Source of the DNA: Candidatus Cloacimonadales bacterium
GTDB lineage: Bacteria; Cloacimonadota; Cloacimonadia; G963667145
NCBI GenBank assembly: GCA_965140615.1
Contig: OZ223280.1
Coordinates: 1,075,555 to 1,139,554, forward strand
Direction: 5' to 3'
Length of the DNA: 64,000 nt
The notes beneath the pieces are model-generated. The model was not told the DNA's origin, made no database searches, and saw only the letters and a program-made list of their open reading frames with translations. Positions 3,599 through 24,621 of this stretch are shown in pieces (position 1 is the first letter of the stretch; each line of letters opens with the position of its first letter). The position numbers were made by a program, and so were the translations under genes.

Positions 3599-4380
3599 AT
3601 GTTTTGAATTTTGCGAAAATGAAGAAGAAAGGAGATATTATCTCGATGGTAACCGCTTATGATAGCACGAGTGCTGCTATTGTGCAAGCGTCGGATATAG
3701 ACTGCATATTGGTGGGGGACTCGTTGGCGATGACGATGTATGGCTATAAGAGCACTCTGGAGGCGAGCCTGCAGATGATGTGTTTGCATATAGCCGCTGT
3801 TCGTAGAGGAGCACCCGATGCGTTCATCGTGGGCGATATGCCGTTTTTGAGCTATCGCAAGGGACTTACATCGGCGATGGATGCTGTGCAAGCGATAATG
3901 CAAGCTGGGGCGAATGCTGTGAAGCTAGAGGGAGTGGTGGGCAGTCAGTCGGTTATCTCCCATATCGTGGACTCTGGTGTGCCTGTGATGGGGCATCTGG
4001 GGCTAGTACCGCAGTCGGTGAACAGCTTGGGCGGTTATAGGGTGCAAGGTAAGGGAAAATCTCAAGAAGAGGTTCTACTTCAGCAATCGTTGGAATTACA
4101 AGAGCTTGGCTGTTTTTCGCTGGTGTTGGAGTGTGTGCCAGCTAGTGTAGGCAATTTGGTATCACAGCAATTACAAATTCCCACTATTGGCATCGGTGCT
4201 GGCAATGGTTGCGATGGTCAAGTGCTGGTTTGGCAAGATTTATTGGGAATGAACACTCAGTTTCAACCGAAATTTGTGCGAAAATATTTGGAAGGAGCAA
4301 AGTTGATGAAAGAGGCTTTAAACAGTTTTAACAAGGATGTGAAGAGCAAAAATTTTCCATCTCAAGATGAGGAGTTTTGA
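3595..4380 (+). CDS. panB: 3-methyl-2-oxobutanoate hydroxymethyltransferase
   Basis: VTAYDSTSAAIV and VGDSLAMTMYGY motifs, 261 aa. Confidence 0.93.
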   Translation: MNVLNFAKMKKKGDIISMVTAYDSTSAAIVQASDIDCILVGDSLAMTMYGYKSTLEASLQMMCLHIAAVRRGAPDAFIVGDMPFLSYRKGLTSAMDAVQAIMQAGANAVKLEGVVGSQSVISHIVDSGVPVMGHLGLVPQSVNSLGGYRVQGKGKSQEEVLLQQSLELQELGCFSLVLECVPASVGNLVSQQLQIPTIGIGAGNGCDGQVLVWQDLLGMNTQFQPKFVRKYLEGAKLMKEALNSFNKDVKSKNFPSQDEEF

Positions 4381-5135
4381 TGCAAGAGGTCAAATCTATC
4401 TGTCAGTGGCGTGAGATTTTTCGCAATTTGCCAGACAAAAGCGTGGGTTTCGTGCCAACGATGGGATTTTTGCATGAGGGTCATATTAGTTTGGTAGAGC
4501 GTGCAAAAGCGGAGAACGAGATCACGGCGGTGTCGATTTTTGTCAATCCTACGCAGTTCAATAATCAAGAAGATTTGCAAAATTACCCTGTGAGTATAGC
4601 GGACGATAAAGAAAAATTGCTTGAATTAGGTGTAGATTATTTGCTTTTACCAGATTATCAGGAGCTTTATTGCGATGGTTACAGGTACAAGGTCAGCGAA
4701 ACCAGCTATTCGCAAGAATTGTGTGGAGCTACTCGTCCGGGGCATTTTGACGGAGTGCTAACGGTGGTGCTGAAACTTTTGAATATTACTAAAGCCACTC
4801 GAGCTTATTTTGGGCAGAAGGATTGGCAACAGTTCCAGTTGGTCAAGGGGATGGTAAAGGCGTTTTTTTTGGACACGCAAGTTGTAGGATGTCCGACTGT
4901 GCGGGAGAGTAGCGGACTTGCTTTGAGCTCTCGCAACAAATTATTAAGTGAGAAAGATAAGCGGATAGCACCACTCTTATACGAGATTATTAGCAAAAAG
5001 CTACCCATCGCAGAAAAGAGAAAGCTTCTGAAAGAAAGTGGATTTGTGGTTGACTATTTGACCCAAAAAGAGGGAAGAGTTTTTGTGGCGGCTTTCCTAG
5101 GTAAAGTGAGGTTAATAGACAATGTCCCCATCTAA
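4380..5135 (+). CDS. panC: Pantoate--beta-alanine ligase
   Basis: VPTMGFLHEGHISLV (HIGH-type) motif. The ATG at 4380 overlaps the panB TGA; the ORF track starts 3 nt earlier at a TTG. Confidence 0.93.
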   Translation: MQEVKSICQWREIFRNLPDKSVGFVPTMGFLHEGHISLVERAKAENEITAVSIFVNPTQFNNQEDLQNYPVSIADDKEKLLELGVDYLLLPDYQELYCDGYRYKVSETSYSQELCGATRPGHFDGVLTVVLKLLNITKATRAYFGQKDWQQFQLVKGMVKAFFLDTQVVGCPTVRESSGLALSSRNKLLSEKDKRIAPLLYEIISKKLPIAEKRKLLKESGFVVDYLTQKEGRVFVAAFLGKVRLIDNVPI

Positions 5136-5658
5136 AATATTAGTGTGTGTGAGCGGCTCGATAGCGGCGTACAAGTCGGCAGAGCTAGTCTCATTGCTGA
5201 AGAAAAGCGGGTGTGAGGTAAAAGTGGTGGCGACAGACGGTGCTTTGCAGTTTATCGGCAAGGCCACGCTGGAAGCTCTCTCTGGGCATCAACTTTACAC
5301 GCAGATGTTTGCCACCTCGCAAAAGATACATCATATAAATCTGGTAAAATGGGCAGATTTAATTGTGCTTTATCCAGCTTCGGCCAGCACTTTGGGGCGT
5401 TTGCGTCTTGGTTTGGCAGAAGATCTGCTTACCGCTTGTTTTGTGGCAAATAATTTCATCAAGCCGTATCTGATAGCTCCATCGATGAATGTGAATATGT
5501 ACGAGCATCCAGCAGTGCAAGACAATCTGAAAACCTTGCGTAGTTGGGGAGCACGGGTGATAGAGCCAGCTTCGGGGACTTTGGCGTGTGGTACTGCAGG
5601 CAAAGGCAGAGCACCAGAGCCAGCTGAGATTTTGAAGATTATCAAGGAGAATTTGTGA
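5122..5658 (+). CDS. coaC: Phosphopantothenoylcysteine decarboxylase (stand-alone flavoprotein domain)
   Basis: ILVCVSGSIAAYKSAELV and PASASTLGRL motifs, 178 aa. Confidence 0.85.
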   Translation: MSPSKILVCVSGSIAAYKSAELVSLLKKSGCEVKVVATDGALQFIGKATLEALSGHQLYTQMFATSQKIHHINLVKWADLIVLYPASASTLGRLRLGLAEDLLTACFVANNFIKPYLIAPSMNVNMYEHPAVQDNLKTLRSWGARVIEPASGTLACGTAGKGRAPEPAEILKIIKENL

Positions 5659-6335
5659 AGATATTGGTAACCGCTGGAGCGACACGCGAACCTATCGACG
5701 GCGTGCGTTTCCTGACCAACTTCGCCACTGGCAAGACAGCAAGCGTGCTAGCCGACCACTTCGCAGAGCAAGGAACACAAGTGGTGTACCTGCACGCAGT
5801 GGGGGCGATAATGCCCAGCAGACCTGTAAAGAGCGTACAGTTCTCCACATTTGCCGATCTGGATGCAAAGCTACACACGCACTTGCAGGCGGGCGAGTGC
5901 GATGCAGTGGTGCATTTGGCAGCTGTAGGCGACTATGCCCTAGAGCATATTGAGCTATCCGATGGTAGCATCGCCTCTACTGGGGCGATAGCCGGCAAGT
6001 TGGACTCATCGCAGAGCATCAAGTTGCAGATGCGACGAAACCACAAGATACTGCCTTTGCTGAAGTCATACGCAGGTGGTGGCAAGCAACCCTTTGTTGT
6101 CGGTTTCAAGCTGACCAGATGTGCCACATCCGAGCAAATCTGTCAGAAGGTGGCAAAGATTTGGCAAGCAGGGGGTGTGGACTTGGTGGTGCACAACGCT
6201 AAAGAGCAGATAACGGCTAGTTGCCATCCAGCCACCTTTTATGCAAGCGATGGCAAAGTGCTGGCACGCACGGCAAGCAAAGGGGAGCTAGCAGAAAAAT
6301 TGTACAAGATAATAGAAGGAGAGCTAAAAAGATGA
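5655..6335 (+). CDS. coaB: Phosphopantothenate--cysteine ligase (stand-alone)
   Basis: ILVTAGATREPIDGVRFLTNFATGK motif. GTGA start/stop overlap with coaC. Confidence 0.85.
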   Translation: MKILVTAGATREPIDGVRFLTNFATGKTASVLADHFAEQGTQVVYLHAVGAIMPSRPVKSVQFSTFADLDAKLHTHLQAGECDAVVHLAAVGDYALEHIELSDGSIASTGAIAGKLDSSQSIKLQMRRNHKILPLLKSYAGGGKQPFVVGFKLTRCATSEQICQKVAKIWQAGGVDLVVHNAKEQITASCHPATFYASDGKVLARTASKGELAEKLYKIIEGELKR

Positions 6336-7102
6336 AGTTGTGCTTAGATTTTGGCAATTCGCAACTTTTGGGAGGATTTGTAAAGGGGCGAGAGATTTTA
6401 TTCCGTTTTCGTAAAGATATGAGCAAGAGTATCTCCTCGGATGAGATGGGGATTTTTTTGAGAGAGGTAATCAGGGAAAACGGCTACGAGCCAAGTACGG
6501 TGAAGAAGATTGTTTTTTGCAGTGTTACTCCCGAGGTGAACCACGCCGTGAAAAACAGCTGTCAAAACTACTTCCAGATAACTCCGCTGGCTCTGGAGCC
6601 GGGCGTGAAAACGGGCTTGCAGATAAAGTACGCCAACCCTGCGGAAGTGGGGGCTGATAGGATAGCTGGGGCTTTGGGAGCGAGTCAGGCTTATCCCGAG
6701 GCGAACATCATCATCGTTGATATGGGCACAGCCACGACTTTCGATGTTTTGACCAAACGAAAGGAGTACCTCGGCGGAGTAATTACCCCGGGAATGTCTA
6801 TCGCTATGCAATCTTTGGAACAGCACACGGCAAAATTGCCTAAGGTGGAGATAGTACGCCCAAGGTGCGTGTGCGGAAAGTCAACGGTGCAGAGCATCCA
6901 AGCAGGTTTGTATTTTGGCAACTTGGGAGCAATCCGCGAGATTTGTGGCGAGATTGCCAAGAGTTGCTTTGCCGATGAGGAAGTTTTGATTTTGGGCACT
7001 GGCGGATTTTCTGGGTTGTTTGCAGATGAGGGCGTGTTCGACCGAGTGAATAAAGACTTGGTATTGGAAGGACTTATAAAATTGGAGGAGTTGAATAGAT
7101 GA
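6332..7102 (+). CDS. coaX: Type III pantothenate kinase
   Basis: [18 protein letters not shown] and [11 protein letters not shown] motifs. The ATG at 6332 overlaps the coaB TGA; the track ORF from 6221 is an upstream extension inside coaB. Confidence 0.9.
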
Positions 7103-7440
7103 TGGTAGAGATGTTGAAAGCTAAATTGCACAGAGCCACGGTAACGGATGCGGATTTGAATTATGAAGGCTCTGTCTCGATAGACACCAAGCTCTGCAAG
7201 GCGGCAGGACTGCTGATGAACGAGAAGGTGGATGTGCTGAATATAGACAACGGTGCGAGGTTCTCCACCTATGTGATAGCTGGCAAAGATGGCGAAATCT
7301 GCTTGAACGGAGCCGCAGCAAGGCTGGTGCAAAAAGGGGACAAGGTGATAATCGTCGCTTATTGCCACATGGACGAGCAGGAAGCCAAAACTCACCAGCC
7401 GAAAGTGGTGCATCTGGATGCGAAAAATCGGGTGAGATAA
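7099..7440 (+). CDS. panD: Aspartate 1-decarboxylase
   Basis: [25 protein letters not shown], including the Gly-Ser self-processing site. 113 aa. Confidence 0.92.
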
Positions 7441-7550
7441 ACAAGAGCTTTTGCACAGTTACAGAGATGGCAAGGCAGTTTTTGTTTGACAGCAGCTCTC
7501 ACCAAATAAAGTGAGTTTGAAGTAATTATTTGAAAATTAAGGAGATTATT

Positions 7551-7742
7551 ATGCGTTTAATTTTAGCACTTTTGTTACCATGGCTACAGTTTTTTACCAT
7601 TGGCAAACCGATTTCAGGGTTTGTGTGTTTGCTTTTGCAAATAACGATTATTGGGTGGATACCAGCTACCATTTGGTCGGTTTACGCTCTTTCGCAGTAC
7701 AAAACAGATCAAAAAATTGCCTTGGCAAACCCAAACAGATAA
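7551..7742 (+). CDS. Small two-TM membrane protein (63 aa), family not securely recognised
   Basis: The ATG at 7551 lies 6 nt after AAGGAG. There are two hydrophobic helices (LILALLLPWLQFF, VCLLLQITIIGWIPATIW). Confidence 0.5.
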   Translation: MRLILALLLPWLQFFTIGKPISGFVCLLLQITIIGWIPATIWSVYALSQYKTDQKIALANPNR

Positions 7743-7888
7743 AAATTTTAATATTATACGGTTATGCTTTTTGAATTGTCCCTGCAAAATATTTTGGCTA
7801 AAAGTGCTAGACAAATTTTAGCGACCCTTTTTTTGAAGGGAACAAATTTTAAACTACAAAAACTAAAAAGTATATAAAGGAGTATGAA

Positions 7889-10141
7889 ATGAATGTGATC
7901 CCCAATTTATGGTATCTGGCACCTGCAGGTGCTTTGATTGCACTTATTTTTGCATATGTGATTTTCTTAGGTGTGAAAAAAATGCCTGCTGGAAATGAGA
8001 AGATGGAGATGATAGCAAAGCATGTCCGCGAAGGGTCTTTTGCATATTTGAAGCAACAATATAAGGGCGTGGCAATCTTTTTTGCGATCGCTTTTGTTGT
8101 TTTCAATATTATGGCTTGGGGAATGCATGTTTTGCACCCTTTGGTGCCTTGGGCTTTCTTGACTGGTGGCATCCTCAGTGGACTGGCTGGATTTTTCGGA
8201 ATGAACACCGCGACCATCGCCTCTGTAAAAACGGTGCAAGCTGCTACTAAAAGTATGGACTCAGCCCTAAAGGTGGCTTTCCGTGCTGGTGGCGTGATGG
8301 GTCTTGTGGTTGTGGGCTTGGCACTGGCAGACATTTGTGCCAAGTTCTTCGCTCTGAACTATCTTGGCTTCGATTTGCAGACTATCACCACAATAATGCT
8401 CGCCTCGGCAATGGGAGCATCGACTCAAGCACTTTTTGCTCGCTTGGGTGGTGGTATCTACACCAAAGCTGCAGATGTGGGAGCTGACCTTGTGGGTAAA
8501 GTAGAGGCTGGCATCCCAGAGGATGACCCTCGTAACCCTGCTACTATCGCCGACAATGTGGGTGATAATGTGGGTGATGTTGCTGGTATGGGTGCGGATT
8601 TGTACGAGTCTTATACTGGTTCTATTTTGGCTACGGCTATCTTGGGATTTTCGGCTGCTGCCAAGGTTGGTGCTAATGCGATGAACTTCGTGATAGCTCC
8701 GATGGTGCTTGCTGGTGTGGGTGCTATCTTGGCTATCGTAGGTATTTACCTTGTGTCCACCAAAGAGGGTGCGTCTATCAAGGAGTTGATGGCTAGCTTG
8801 AACAAAGGTGTGCATATTAGCTCTTTGTTGATAGTGGTCGCTGCTTACTTCGTAACGGACTTGCTACTACCTGCTGACTTGGCTTTGGGCATCTTCTTCG
8901 CTGCGGTCATCGGTCTTGTCGCTGGCATCATGGTCGGCTACTTCACCGAGAGGTATACCTCCGATGCGTACGCTCCTACTAGGGGCATCGCCGAGCAAGG
9001 CAGTTTCGGTCCAGCTACGGTTATTATCGACGGTCTGGCTGTGGGTATGCAATCTACCTTCGCTTCTGTGCTGGTCATCGTCGTGGCAATCATTGCCGCT
9101 TTCAGTGTCTCTGGTGGCTTCACTCAGATGGAGTTCGGGCTTTACGGTATAGGTTTCGGTGCTGTGGGGATGCTCTCTACCTTGGGAGTTACCTTGGCGA
9201 TGGACGCTTTTGGTCCTATTGCCGATAATGCAGGCGGTAACGCCGAGATGAGTGGACTATCCGAAGAGGTGAGAAAACGCACGGACGCTCTAGACTCTGT
9301 AGGCAATACCACAGCAGCAACAGGCAAAGGTTTTGCCATCGGTTCGGCTGCACTTACTGCCATGGCTCTTTTGGCATCTTACATCGAGCAAATCAGAATT
9401 GGATTTATGGAAATGGGCGTGAAGACGCTCACGGTGGTTTACTCCAGCGGAGTGCGAGAGGTTATCTCTGTTTCCAAGGCTGGCATCGCCGATTTCGTGA
9501 ACTATTACAACATCACCTTGATGAACCCCAAAGTGCTTTGTGGACTGTTTATCGGGGCGATGGTCTCGTTTGTGTTCGCTGCCATGACGATGAAGTCTGT
9601 GGGCAGAGTTGCCGCAGAGATGGTGGCAGAGGTGCGTAGACAGTTCCGAGAGATAGCTGGCATCTTGGAGGGCAAAGCCACTCCAGACTATGCTCGTTGT
9701 GTGGAGATTTCTACCATCGGTGCACAAAAAGAGATGATAGCTCCAGCGATGCTGGGCATCTTGACCCCCATAGTCGTCGGTTTGCTGTTGGGCGTGTCGG
9801 GTGTGATGGGACTCTTGGTCGGTGGCTTGGCTACTGGCTTCTCATTGGCGATAATGATGAACAACGCCGGTGGTGCGTGGGATAACGCCAAGAAGTATAT
9901 CGAGGCTGGTAACAACGGCGGCAAAGGCTCGGACTCGCACAAGGCGTGTGTGGTGGGCGACACCGTAGGCGATCCGTTCAAAGACACCTCTGGTCCATCT
10001 ATCAACATCTTGATAAAGCTTATGTCTATGGTTTCTATCGTGTTTGCAGGGCTTGTGATAGCTTACTCTCCGATGGTTGAGGGGCTTTACAGCCAGACCT
10101 CTGCGGAGAAAGCTACGCTTACGCAGGTTGATGGTAAATAG
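7889..10141 (+). CDS. hppA: Membrane-bound ion-translocating pyrophosphatase
   Basis: GGGIYTKAADVGADLVGKVEAGIPEDDPRNPATIADNVGDNVGDVAGMGADL signature. 750 aa, polytopic. Confidence 0.95.
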   Translation: MNVIPNLWYLAPAGALIALIFAYVIFLGVKKMPAGNEKMEMIAKHVREGSFAYLKQQYKGVAIFFAIAFVVFNIMAWGMHVLHPLVPWAFLTGGILSGLAGFFGMNTATIASVKTVQAATKSMDSALKVAFRAGGVMGLVVVGLALADICAKFFALNYLGFDLQTITTIMLASAMGASTQALFARLGGGIYTKAADVGADLVGKVEAGIPEDDPRNPATIADNVGDNVGDVAGMGADLYESYTGSILATAILGFSAAAKVGANAMNFVIAPMVLAGVGAILAIVGIYLVSTKEGASIKELMASLNKGVHISSLLIVVAAYFVTDLLLPADLALGIFFAAVIGLVAGIMVGYFTERYTSDAYAPTRGIAEQGSFGPATVIIDGLAVGMQSTFASVLVIVVAIIAAFSVSGGFTQMEFGLYGIGFGAVGMLSTLGVTLAMDAFGPIADNAGGNAEMSGLSEEVRKRTDALDSVGNTTAATGKGFAIGSAALTAMALLASYIEQIRIGFMEMGVKTLTVVYSSGVREVISVSKAGIADFVNYYNITLMNPKVLCGLFIGAMVSFVFAAMTMKSVGRVAAEMVAEVRRQFREIAGILEGKATPDYARCVEISTIGAQKEMIAPAMLGILTPIVVGLLLGVSGVMGLLVGGLATGFSLAIMMNNAGGAWDNAKKYIEAGNNGGKGSDSHKACVVGDTVGDPFKDTSGPSINILIKLMSMVSIVFAGLVIAYSPMVEGLYSQTSAEKATLTQVDGK

Positions 10142-23215: not shown

Positions 23216-23315
23216 TGTAAAACTCCTTATAAAACTATATTAACACAAAATTTGATTTGCCGTTCATTTGTCAATAAAAACATAGTGGGTTGTGGAGGAT
23301 GAAATTTAATATGTT

Positions 23316-23564
23316 TTAGCCACATAAAATATAATCATCCAAAATGTCTTCTAAAATAGCTTCATCTTCTTTCATGACAAGTCTACTTTTTATCTTTTTA
23401 ACCCAAGAGATTATCTCTTGCTTTGAGTTTAGTTGCTTTAGAAAAATATAGTCGTGGTTAATACCAGCAATTTCAATATTTGCATTAAAGCTGTCGGCAT
23501 AAGAAATTTGGTTTTCAGAGACAATAGAAGTAAAGATTTCTATTTTTTTTTTAAAACTTAGCAT
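23316..23564 (-). CDS. Hypothetical 82-aa protein with an acidic C-terminus, translationally coupled to the upstream nuclease-like gene
   Basis: 7-nt overlap with the stop of the 255-aa ORF. It shares that ORF's extreme AT-richness. No family recognised. Confidence 0.5.
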   Translation of the reverse strand: MLSFKKKIEIFTSIVSENQISYADSFNANIEIAGINHDYIFLKQLNSKQEIISWVKKIKSRLVMKEDEAILEDILDDYILCG

Positions 23565-24325
23565 ATTGGTTGAGCTAATTGATATTCTTTTATAGCTTTT
23601 GGATGTATTATTTTTTCTTCAAAAATCAGATTTTTAGTTGGATTTTCTATGGTTAAAATTCGAGGAATGTCATTAAGGTTTAAAATTAGAGTAATGATAT
23701 AGTCATTTTTATATTCCAATGCTTTTTTATATTCATTTTCAGTTAATCTGAATTTTCCTTTCTTTTCTCTTATACCTTTTACTTCTGCCAAAAAAAAATT
23801 ACTTTTTACATCTATTTGAAAGTCGTAACCATCTCCATATAGTCTTGCATCTTCTAGTAATCCATTTTTGAAAATATCAATTGTATTATAGTTGTTAATA
23901 AAAAACAATTCTGCTTCCAAACCGGTTTCTTGTAATTTTTTAAATTTTGTTTTAGAAATTGGTTTTGCTTTACTTTTTATTTTAGAAAAATTAAAATGAT
24001 TTTCCATATATAATTTAATAGTATTAGCATATTCTTGTACAGTTTCATTTCCAAATAAACTGTCTATAAGAATTTTCCTATGAATATAAGTATTTTCCTT
24101 TTGCCACCAGCCTTTTCTACCATTTTCTGGGAAAAAAGGGTCAAATAAATCCATTCTATTTTTTACAGTACCAGTTGTTTTAGCAATTCCATTGCTTATA
24201 CAGAAATTATAGAAATCTTGTTTTTTGGAAAATCCAAATTCTTCGATAAAAGCGTTGTTAAATTTAGACATCCCATAACCTATTAAGTTTAAAATTTCAT
24301 AATTTTTATGTCGATTTTCATTCAT
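23558..24325 (-). CDS. Protein with a C-terminal DUF3883-like (PD-(D/E)xK restriction-endonuclease fold) domain and an unrecognised N-terminal domain
   Basis: The C-terminal GDGYDFQIDV...LAEVKGIREKKGKFRLTENEYKKALEYKNDYIITLI fits the G-x-D ... E-V-K ... l-t-x-n-E pattern I recall for DUF3883. Confidence 0.6.
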   Translation of the reverse strand: MNENRHKNYEILNLIGYGMSKFNNAFIEEFGFSKKQDFYNFCISNGIAKTTGTVKNRMDLFDPFFPENGRKGWWQKENTYIHRKILIDSLFGNETVQEYANTIKLYMENHFNFSKIKSKAKPISKTKFKKLQETGLEAELFFINNYNTIDIFKNGLLEDARLYGDGYDFQIDVKSNFFLAEVKGIREKKGKFRLTENEYKKALEYKNDYIITLILNLNDIPRILTIENPTKNLIFEEKIIHPKAIKEYQLAQPIC

Positions 24326-24621
24326 AATCTTAATTTATCTCTGTTTATAGTAGGATATATTTTTGACTTCTTTCCACATTTCCTCAGTCAATCTATTTGT
24401 CAAGCTCAAAGAATGCAGGGACGCCTTGCCTGAAACCCTCGTATCAAACTGTAAACCGATGCAGGTTATTTTGGCGTAATGTTTTTATTGTGAAAGGTTG
24501 CCTTATTGTAGAAGCAAATATCCAAAGGGATAGAAGCGAGTAAAGAGTAATAAATTGGTTGACATATATTAACCAATGCCAAAGATTGAAGCAAATCCTT
24601 ATTGTTTAGGAGGAGAAAAGT

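Follow-up and report, generated by a model that had tools for sequence, protein, structure and literature searches.

A predicted DUF3883-type nuclease gene with a coupled acidic partner, related to C5-methyltransferase-linked operons, between rpmE and buk of a Cloacimonadales genome

Two overlapping genes lie between rpmE and buk in a 64,000-nucleotide (nt) stretch of the genome of Candidatus Cloacimonadales bacterium (GenBank assembly GCA_965140615.1, contig OZ223280.1, forward-strand positions 1,075,555 to 1,139,554), the whole of which is called the window below. One encodes a protein of 255 amino acids (aa) with a DNA-binding N-terminal half, as it is read here, and a nuclease domain of the DUF3883 family; the other encodes an acidic protein of 82 aa. 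To judge by its sequence relationships, the 255-aa protein descends from the nuclease component of restriction-modification-type operons linked to a C5 DNA methyltransferase. The window copy is fully orphaned: the methyltransferase, the restriction enzyme and the ATPases are lost. I propose, with a probability of about 0.4, that the nuclease, basic and DNA-binding, is kept in check by its acidic partner, and that the pair is a methylase-independent nuclease-inhibitor module, toxin-antitoxin-like and/or active in defense by abortive infection.

The pair had been picked out by an earlier sequence-only reading of this DNA, which gave both minus-strand open reading frames (ORFs) and their 7-nt overlap correctly (Table 1). 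The same reading took the C-terminus of the larger protein for a DUF3883-type domain of the PD-(D/E)xK fold, and the family match, the invariant catalytic-motif residues and the fold matches all bear this out. The profile of NOV_C (PF13020, formerly DUF3883) is matched with 55.3 bits against a cut-off of 22.1, over positions 4 to 91 of its 91. Residues E139, D165, D168 and E181 are invariant in 75 of 75 subfamily sequences, K183 in 74 of them with one gap, and E139, D168, E181 and K183 are invariant as well in a 67-sequence alignment of the wide family, down to about 22% identity. The AlphaFold2 model of the protein has a mean confidence score (pLDDT) of 74, with 80-92 in the C-terminal half and poor values at residues 53-82. 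Its best Foldseek matches are the D212 nuclease, Hjc resolvases, SPARDA DREN and R.SwaI, at probabilities of 0.9-1.0 and E-values of only 3.5e-3 to 5e-2. According to the model, then, the C-terminal domain has a restriction-endonuclease-like alpha/beta fold. DUF3883 has been placed in the PD-(D/E)xK superfamily (PMC3424549), the NOV_C domain of HmaA nicks DNA and is needed for phage defense (PMC11232893), and in YenY4I DUF3883 is the catalytic domain of a restriction enzyme (PMC6765204).

The N-terminal half is basic, with an isoelectric point (pI) of 9.5, and carries a motif common to the wide family, (I/V)KN.RD.FD ... R.GW.Q. A few of the 67 distant members match helix-turn-helix (HTH) or similar families in this half (HTH_23 in three; MerR_1, HTH_29, Sigma70_r4_2, HTH_17 and Phage_terminase in one each), which suggests an HTH-type DNA-binding domain. 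That is the sole further signal in the protein family, where domains that read modified bases (PUA, SRA, DUF3427) were looked for and not found. The 255-aa protein itself has no match to Vsr (PF03852), and a search of the PDB at the level of sequence gave no relatives.

The DNA downstream of the nuclease was surveyed in 83 loci that offer at least 200 nt of room (compared loci are given L-numbers and proteins P-numbers). A profile-detectable homologue of the 82-aa protein follows the nuclease in 58 of them, and two further homologues, in L109 and L110, look broken only since their host reads TGA as sense (genetic code 25). The 82-aa ORF, taken for a coupled partner in the earlier reading, is real, conserved and translationally coupled. 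Its close relatives in a word-indexed search number seven. In 17 of the 83 loci a different small ORF takes its place, and in a handful there is none or a truncated one. Whichever class of partner is present, its start nearly always overlaps the nuclease stop in the form ATATGYTAA ('ML...').

At least three of the classes are unrelated to one another. The first comprises the 82-aa type and longer relatives (78-93 aa), with conserved motifs SYADSFNANI and DDYILCG; the second is a CxxC...CxxC type of 62-73 aa, and the third a helical type of 58-68 aa. A fourth, Cys-rich class of 73-74 aa was seen in the branch whose nuclease is 51-53% identical (L119 5779-6003, L127 5782-6003); it has the motif LNLDYWDC.CE..YIHPIK..VCKKCD and starts 8 nt past the nuclease stop, without overlap. 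Partners are acidic (grouped as A, B and C, class A has a median pI of 4.5 and classes B and C have values of 4.05-5.76), as against 9.5 for the N-terminal half of the nuclease. Neither the 82-aa protein nor the other classes belong to any known family in Pfam, NCBIfam, PHROG or PADLOC, no Pfam match rising above noise. The small ORF might have been left over from the GHKL ATPase, Z1 helicase, methyltransferase, restriction enzyme or 480-aa protein of related operons, but it shows similarity to none of them.

Where did such a nuclease come from? There are five independent contexts in which a NOV_C protein only 25-28% identical to that of the window accompanies a C5 methyltransferase and an ATPase of the GHKL type (HATPase_c_3). 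In four of the five (L115, L122-124, L125, L128) the genes are co-directional, in the order methyltransferase, NOV_C, GHKL ATPase, Z1 helicase, with the occasional addition of a Vsr gene, an HTH_3 controller, a 480-aa protein or DUF4420. In the fifth (L116-118) the NOV_C gene is convergent to an operon of Vsr, methyltransferase and GHKL genes, and no Z1 gene is seen. A further relative, at 28% identity on a Terribacillus plasmid, adjoins AIPR and Z1 genes. Operons of paraMORC ATPases have been described as including an uncharacterized protein of restriction-endonuclease fold with E-D-ExK motifs (Iyer, Abhiman and Aravind 2008, PMC2292703). The distant NOV_C operons are of this paraMORC type; the unnamed protein may be of the NOV_C family or may instead be DUF4420.

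The distant methyltransferases all have catalytic motif X (5 of 5), and the small partner is present in none of the five contexts. The situation is reversed closer to the window. There the small ORF is coupled to the nuclease in about 90% of close and intermediate loci, and motif X is found in none of those loci. The pattern is thus an inverse one: where the methyltransferase is whole and motor proteins are present there is no partner, and where the methyltransferase is truncated or absent there is one. In the two intermediate contexts, at 51-53% identity, the nuclease is accompanied by no more than a fragment of a methyltransferase and a small Cys-rich ORF.

A role as a substitute for Vsr, or as a controller (C-protein), is made less likely by the presence, alongside family members, of a true Vsr and of an HTH_3 controller. 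As an aside on these distant loci, a toxin-antitoxin pair of the DarTG type (DarT and Macro; L115 880-2578) stands directly upstream of the methyltransferase, NOV_C, GHKL, Z1 and DUF4420 operon of that locus, a region that looks like a defense island. A tRNA-like sequence, seen by eye after the distant NOV_C gene of L116 (about 5960-6060), may mark an island boundary.

The close subfamily, 64-80% identical and found in many phyla, is linked to a different kind of operon. A survey of 146 neighboring ORFs at about 60 non-redundant loci counts C5 DNA methylase 16 times and the B3-like domain from the C-terminus of NgoFVII 10 times; all other families occur three times or fewer, and neither a GHKL ATPase nor a Z1 helicase is among the 146. 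The methyltransferase lies directly upstream of the nuclease on the same strand, its stop 3-20 nt ahead of the nuclease ATG. The B3 domain is part of a downstream protein of 350-400 aa, which in the 82-aa class is represented by a 143-aa version with B3 only. Plasmid homologues of the downstream protein, 41-43% identical to it, are annotated as restriction endonucleases of the NgoFVII family with a phospholipase D (PLD) domain. By tblastn, genes or remnants of the methyltransferase and/or the restriction enzyme are present in 19 of the 39 loci with usable flanks. Additional mini-remnants, read by eye in the 90 nt upstream of the ATG, include a 'FIDLFAGIG' cut off by a stop, as in L049, L086 and L105-L110.

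The curated operons of NgoFVII type, on Priestia, Caldicellulosiruptor and Finegoldia plasmids, consist of a methyltransferase, a restriction enzyme, a controller and a Vsr or base-excision repair gene, without the pair. Their methyltransferases terminate '...LYKQ(A/S)GN(S/A)V...', while those adjacent to the cassette stop at or before '...LYMQAS(stop)' and lack motif X. Examples are L022 4400-5233, L077 2-862, L052 66-548 and L041 479-1141, along with about 20 other loci. A displaced motif X, as in a split or permuted enzyme, was not found in six frames of 12 loci, in a search that did find its positive controls. Only in L109 and L110 are the truncations explained by an alternative genetic code.

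In the window even these traces are gone, there being no similarity to the methyltransferase or to B3 within the 64 kb (best E-value 0.38). The nearest relatives of the window copy, at 78-80% identity (L024, L025-27 and a Parcubacteria contig, L022), are still flanked by a methyltransferase in truncated form and by a gene with B3 only. In other loci the methyltransferase remnant abuts the nuclease ATG, whereas the window has a 95-nt leader unrelated to it. Because the family is C5-linked and the nearest relatives keep remnants, the pair in the window is best seen as an orphaned piece of a restriction-modification-type operon and not as a system that arose by itself. The earlier description of a stand-alone effector with no methyltransferase is right for the window and wrong for the family, which is tightly tied to C5-methyltransferase operons.

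Selection has kept the nuclease. Its median ratio of nonsynonymous to synonymous substitution (dN/dS, pairwise Nei-Gojobori) is 0.125 over 2537 pairs, and that of the partner is 0.43 over 1030 pairs: the nuclease is under purifying selection, the partner under weaker constraint. The pair is intact where the methyltransferase and restriction genes have been deleted, and at least 20 independent loci are flank-less in this way.

What could hold a restriction-type nuclease in check once its methyltransferase is gone? I suggest that in the close subfamily a protein partner replaced methylation as the means of self-protection. The acidic partner would bind the basic nuclease and hold it inactive, as antitoxins, immunity proteins or DNA mimics do. 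Given inhibition by a partner, the orphan pair would persist as a methylase-independent module. Were the partner lost or displaced, the nuclease would cut or nick DNA, with addiction and/or abortive infection as the outcome. Three observations commend this idea: an intact methylase and the partner are inversely related, the partner classes are all acidic despite being unrelated, and it is exactly these two genes that survive while their neighbors decay. A wider version goes further, and I hold it rather doubtful. It would have the cassette be a widely transferred minimal module, in which a restriction nuclease switched from methylation to a protein for its self-protection (that is, from restriction-modification to toxin-antitoxin or abortive infection), with interchangeable acidic inhibitors and with a parent methyltransferase that, lacking motif X, is non-catalytic and serves, for example, in DNA recognition.

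Several facts weigh against the nuclease-inhibitor proposal. Intact nucleases with a truncated or missing partner exist in L028, L035 (P0039, on 42 contigs) and L047, and because of them the partner is not strictly essential. The AlphaFold model of the 82-aa protein, though helical, is of low confidence (pLDDT 58). The dN/dS values are rough, because dS is about 1-1.6 and so near saturation. Unexpectedly, the retained parts of the methyltransferase (dN/dS 0.05-0.20) are as constrained as the nuclease in the same pairs of loci, and so are the restriction genes (0.09-0.17, one outlier pair reaching 0.42); the divergence of both tracks that of the nuclease. It follows that the four genes diverged as one operon, that the internal deletions in many loci are recent, and that the methyltransferase without motif X, which may still be functional, has apparently been kept by selection. 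The pair therefore has the look, within the ancestral operon, of an integrated accessory more than of a module in its own right. Of 117 highly conserved positions the window copy has changed at 7, where the family median is 1, mostly by conservative substitution and with the catalytic residues kept. As to defense, PADLOC gives partial matches only, to the last 65-140 positions of TmtA profiles (best E-value 7.7e-10), and a full-length TmtA of about 1300-1780 aa is not what is encoded here; relatives are found neither on IMG/VR contigs (queried with a single protein) nor in GenBank phage records.

Four other explanations, in falling order of probability, have to be set against the nuclease-inhibitor proposal. 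The leading one, which I consider unlikely, makes the protein a solitary restriction-type nuclease that recognizes foreign DNA by sequence or, like a Type IV enzyme, by modification, with the partner as activator, adaptor or sensor in place of GHKL and Z1. The distant nuclease does sit in a restriction-modification-type operon with motor proteins, where the GHKL ATPase gene lies directly downstream with overlapping stop and start, and that is the slot held by the small ORF in the close subfamily. Modification-dependent enzymes use DUF3883 as their catalytic domain, intact nucleases occur without the partner, and a constant effector with varying partner classes resembles sensor modules. Against this, no domain that reads modified bases (PUA, SRA, DUF3427) is found and the N-terminus is HTH-like, and the small partners are unlike GHKL, Z1 or any other protein of the operons. 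Moreover, an unmethylated host with neither methylase nor inhibitor would be exposed to a sequence-specific nuclease. The more prosaic view, that the pair is the last fragment of a decayed NgoFVII-type operon with no present role, seems to me less likely again. In many relatives decay is plain to see in the flanking methyltransferase and restriction genes, neither of which is left beside the window copy; that copy also has more changes at conserved positions than most relatives, and a full promoter consensus is missing upstream. Decay without function would nonetheless be expected to open AT-rich frames to stop codons soon, and both ORFs are intact, with catalytic residues invariant over 75 sequences and a nuclease dN/dS of about 0.13. 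Random decay also predicts something other than the survival of the same two genes, their neighbors deleted, in at least 20 independent flank-less loci.

The remaining two explanations take their start from the neighboring methyltransferase, and I give either of them little chance. A repair nuclease linked to 5-methylcytosine, an analogue of Vsr nicking at the T:G mismatches left by its deamination, would explain the position after C5 methyltransferase genes. The vsr gene overlaps dcm, and likewise in L115 there is an overlap of 11 nt between the NOV_C gene and the methylase stop; adjacency to C5 methyltransferases is family-wide, and curated NgoFVII-type operons do have a Vsr or base-excision repair accessory gene. 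Against it, a genuine Vsr is in the same operon in L122-124 and adjoins the NOV_C gene in L116-118, and the idea offers no account of the coupled acidic partner. The pair is kept, besides, where the methyltransferase is truncated or absent, and the 64-kb window has no C5 methylase at all. Least probable, by a little, is a selfish homing-type cassette whose nuclease cleaves at a conserved place, such as the region encoding motif X in C5 methyltransferase genes, and which is then copied into the break. This would account for the fact that each neighboring methyltransferase breaks off no later than motif X, right where the 5' edge of the cassette lies, for DNA homology between cassettes that stops at the ORF boundaries, and for cassettes that directly follow unrelated genes (polA, glycosyltransferase, DUF1294). 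Against repeated invasion, the divergences of methyltransferase and nuclease match pair by pair, as expected of long co-inheritance. The 3' remainder of the methyltransferase is never seen downstream, there is no intron, intein or phage context, and the site in the window is intergenic, without a methyltransferase remnant.

How much of this is new? NOV_C as a domain is known already, and so is the type of the parent operon. The orphan cassette of HTH-DUF3883 nuclease and acidic partner, its breadth and its C5-methylase origin are not described in PADLOC 2.0, Pfam, NCBIfam, PHROGs or the literature searched, which agrees with the earlier statement that the pairing matches no named system. To the paraMORC/Z1 operons (PMC2292703) it is related by homology, the distant family members matching the window protein at a profile E-value of about 1e-84 with 25-33% identity, the same two-domain build of about 260 aa and the same invariant E, D and ExK; these relatives stand with DCM, a GHKL ATPase and usually Z1, with or without Vsr, DUF4420 and AIPR. 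The window copy differs in having no methyltransferase, GHKL ATPase or Z1 helicase and in having rpmE and buk for neighbors. A further difference is its subfamily, tight (64-80% identity) and widely transferred, whose coupled acidic partner is missing from the distant members.

Systems of the NgoFVII, NgoAVII and CglI type are made up of a C5 methyltransferase and a PLD-B3 endonuclease (PMC4267653, PMC4267654). In the close subfamily the pair stands between just such genes, a methyltransferase 54-59% identical to the curated ones and a PLD-B3 endonuclease at 41-43%. The curated operons, in contrast, have neither an HTH-DUF3883 gene nor a small partner, and next to the pair the methyltransferases lack motif X and the PLD-B3 gene is whole or a remnant, the window having neither. 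HmaA (of Hma), TmtA (of Tiamat) and YenY4I/McaZI have the same catalytic domain, and nicking or cleavage dependent on its D, E and K residues has been shown for HmaA and YenY4I. These are large multidomain proteins with helicase, ATPase, PUA or DUF3427 parts, unlike the 255-aa HTH-like and nuclease protein of the window with its separate partner.

Type II toxin-antitoxin and nuclease-immunity pairs offer another likeness: two genes with overlapping stop and start that encode a basic enzyme of nucleic acids and an acidic, helical partner of about 80 aa. Colicin DNases with their Im proteins are of this kind, as are toxin-first operons such as higBA. The cassette is also, like them, mobile, AT-rich and persistent while its neighbors decay. 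It differs in showing no likeness, by sequence or by profile, to any toxin-antitoxin family, and some lineages are without the partner.

If the nuclease-inhibitor proposal is true, part of a restriction-modification system has been released from its methyltransferase and lives on as a very small, mobile unit of nuclease and inhibitor. Found in about 2,000 protein clusters, in lineages that range from Patescibacteria through Francisella, Flavobacterium and Campylobacterota to Cloacimonadota, it would be one more candidate for a minimal system of defense or addiction, and would provide a concrete test case for the evolutionary links proposed between restriction-modification and toxin-antitoxin systems. 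Even if it fails, the many 'DUF3883 domain-containing proteins' of about 255 aa can be annotated as nucleases of C5-methylase-linked restriction operons or as their orphans. There remains the side puzzle of C5 methyltransferases that lack motif X and are seemingly selected all the same.

The spread of the cassette is wide. A word-indexed search returned 1962 relatives of the 255-aa protein, and the best 120 of them are all about 255 aa long and 68-80% identical; sources named among the relatives include Patescibacteria, Francisella, Thioploca, Victivallales, Flavobacterium, Sulfurovum, Aliarcobacter and Sulfurospirillaceae. An exhaustive search of representatives at 50% identity gave 398 clusters at E-values of 1e-3 or below, about 100 of them full-length with 26-49% identity. 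Structure matches in viruses are to generic PD-(D/E)xK folds. In 48 loci the GC content of the cassette is 0.23-0.32, and that of the flanks is always higher, at 0.29-0.44. Cassettes resemble one another as DNA only up to the small ORF's stop at one end and, at the other, to a point no more than about 13 nt from the first ATG. In L109 (8001-9010) and L110 (3854-4863; P0028, on a 1.66-Mb contig) the cassette genes have in-frame TGA codons at conserved glycine positions, which indicates that the host uses genetic code 25, as Gracilibacteria do, and suggests that the cassette has been resident there long enough for recoding. Among several otherwise syntenic Sulfurovum contigs, one (L105, 9034-10089; compare L106 and L107) has a gene for a phage-type integrase directly after the pair.

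Table 1. Coordinates in the window of the cassette, its two genes and their parts
Feature	Position	Strand	Basis
255-aa HTH + DUF3883/NOV_C nuclease gene (predicted)	23558..24325	-	ORF; PF13020, E 6.8e-15
82-aa small acidic partner gene (pI 5.0, predicted all-helical)	23316..23564	-	ORF
Stop/start overlap, 7 nt (ATGCTAA on the coding strand), translational coupling	23558..23564	-	Sequence
Window-specific inserted segment, GC 0.257	23297..24420	.	Alignment with L001 and L002; composition
5' non-coding leader, window copy only	24326..24420	-	No likeness to upstream DNA of other loci
N-terminal basic domain, residues 1-135, pI 9.5, HTH-like DNA-binding module (putative)	23921..24325	-	Motif; HTH matches in distant members
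NOV_C/DUF3883 PD-(D/E)xK nuclease domain, residues 141-226; putative catalytic E139, D165/D168, E181-V-K183	23648..23905	-	Pfam

The place of the insertion can be read from relatives, and the pair is missing from the rpmE-buk junction in three Cloacimonadota genomes related to that of the window. On one side of it is rpmE, for ribosomal protein L31 (TIGR00105, E-value 2.4e-32), with prfA and a DUF1385 gene beyond; on the other is buk, for butyrate kinase (TIGR02707, E-value 2.3e-137), with ilvB and ilvD beyond, all identified with NCBIfam. Both flanking genes had been named correctly from the letters, and only their description as universally conserved core genes has to be given up for buk, butyrate kinase not being universal. 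L001 and L002, whose Buk proteins are 83% and 72% identical to that of the window, keep the order prfA, DUF1385, rpmE ... buk, ilvB, and in both the gap is without the pair. In alignment with them, common DNA stops at about 23296 on the rpmE side and restarts at about 24421 on the buk side. The gap in L002 holds three metabolic genes. That in L001, the closest relative (3975-8000), holds an HsdS-like gene (PF01420) and a gene for a 677-aa N6 DNA methyltransferase (PF02384), with no HsdR in view, and because of these it appears that restriction-modification-type cargo entered the rpmE-buk junction more than once.

Composition tells the same story. The inserted segment has a GC content of 0.257 against 0.453 for the whole window and is its lowest-GC stretch of 1.1 kb; values of 0.30 or less are found in just 1.35% of 1.1-kb windows, every one of which overlaps the cassette locus. 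The counts of G+C made earlier on three 60-nt lines (13/60 and 13/60 within, 33/60 in buk) are exact, and the low GC, the variable junction and the absence of the pair from L001 and L002, where other cargo is present instead, uphold the idea of an AT-rich, horizontally acquired two-gene insertion.

The borders are less telling. The 9-mer ATTTGTCAA does occur on both sides at 23266-23274 and 24395-24403, as had been noticed. The right copy is within the insert, near its edge. The left copy is 22 nt beyond the border, in the DNA upstream of rpmE common to L001 and L002, and because it is conserved there and the word is over-represented, the suggested target-site duplication is rejected. The word (reverse complement TTGACAAAT) occurs five times in the window (3434, 21964, 23266, 24395, 47991) against 1.18 expected, a number that 0 of 100 shuffles reached. 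It could be a promoter-like word, with inconsistent placement relative to genes. The insert has no terminal repeats, inverted ones included, that could be found, and no conserved cassette ends were found across the compared loci. A promoter scan upstream of the pair gave no full sigma-70 consensus, only a TTGACA hexamer at 24403-24398 that is not relied on as a -35 element, and Rfam matches for a non-coding RNA in the segment are at chance level only. Just outside the insert, the approximately 200 nt upstream of buk (24421-24620), which have no Rfam match, are strongly conserved with L001 and partly with L002 and L003, a TTGACA..ATAT core included. This stretch may be the leader or the promoter of buk.

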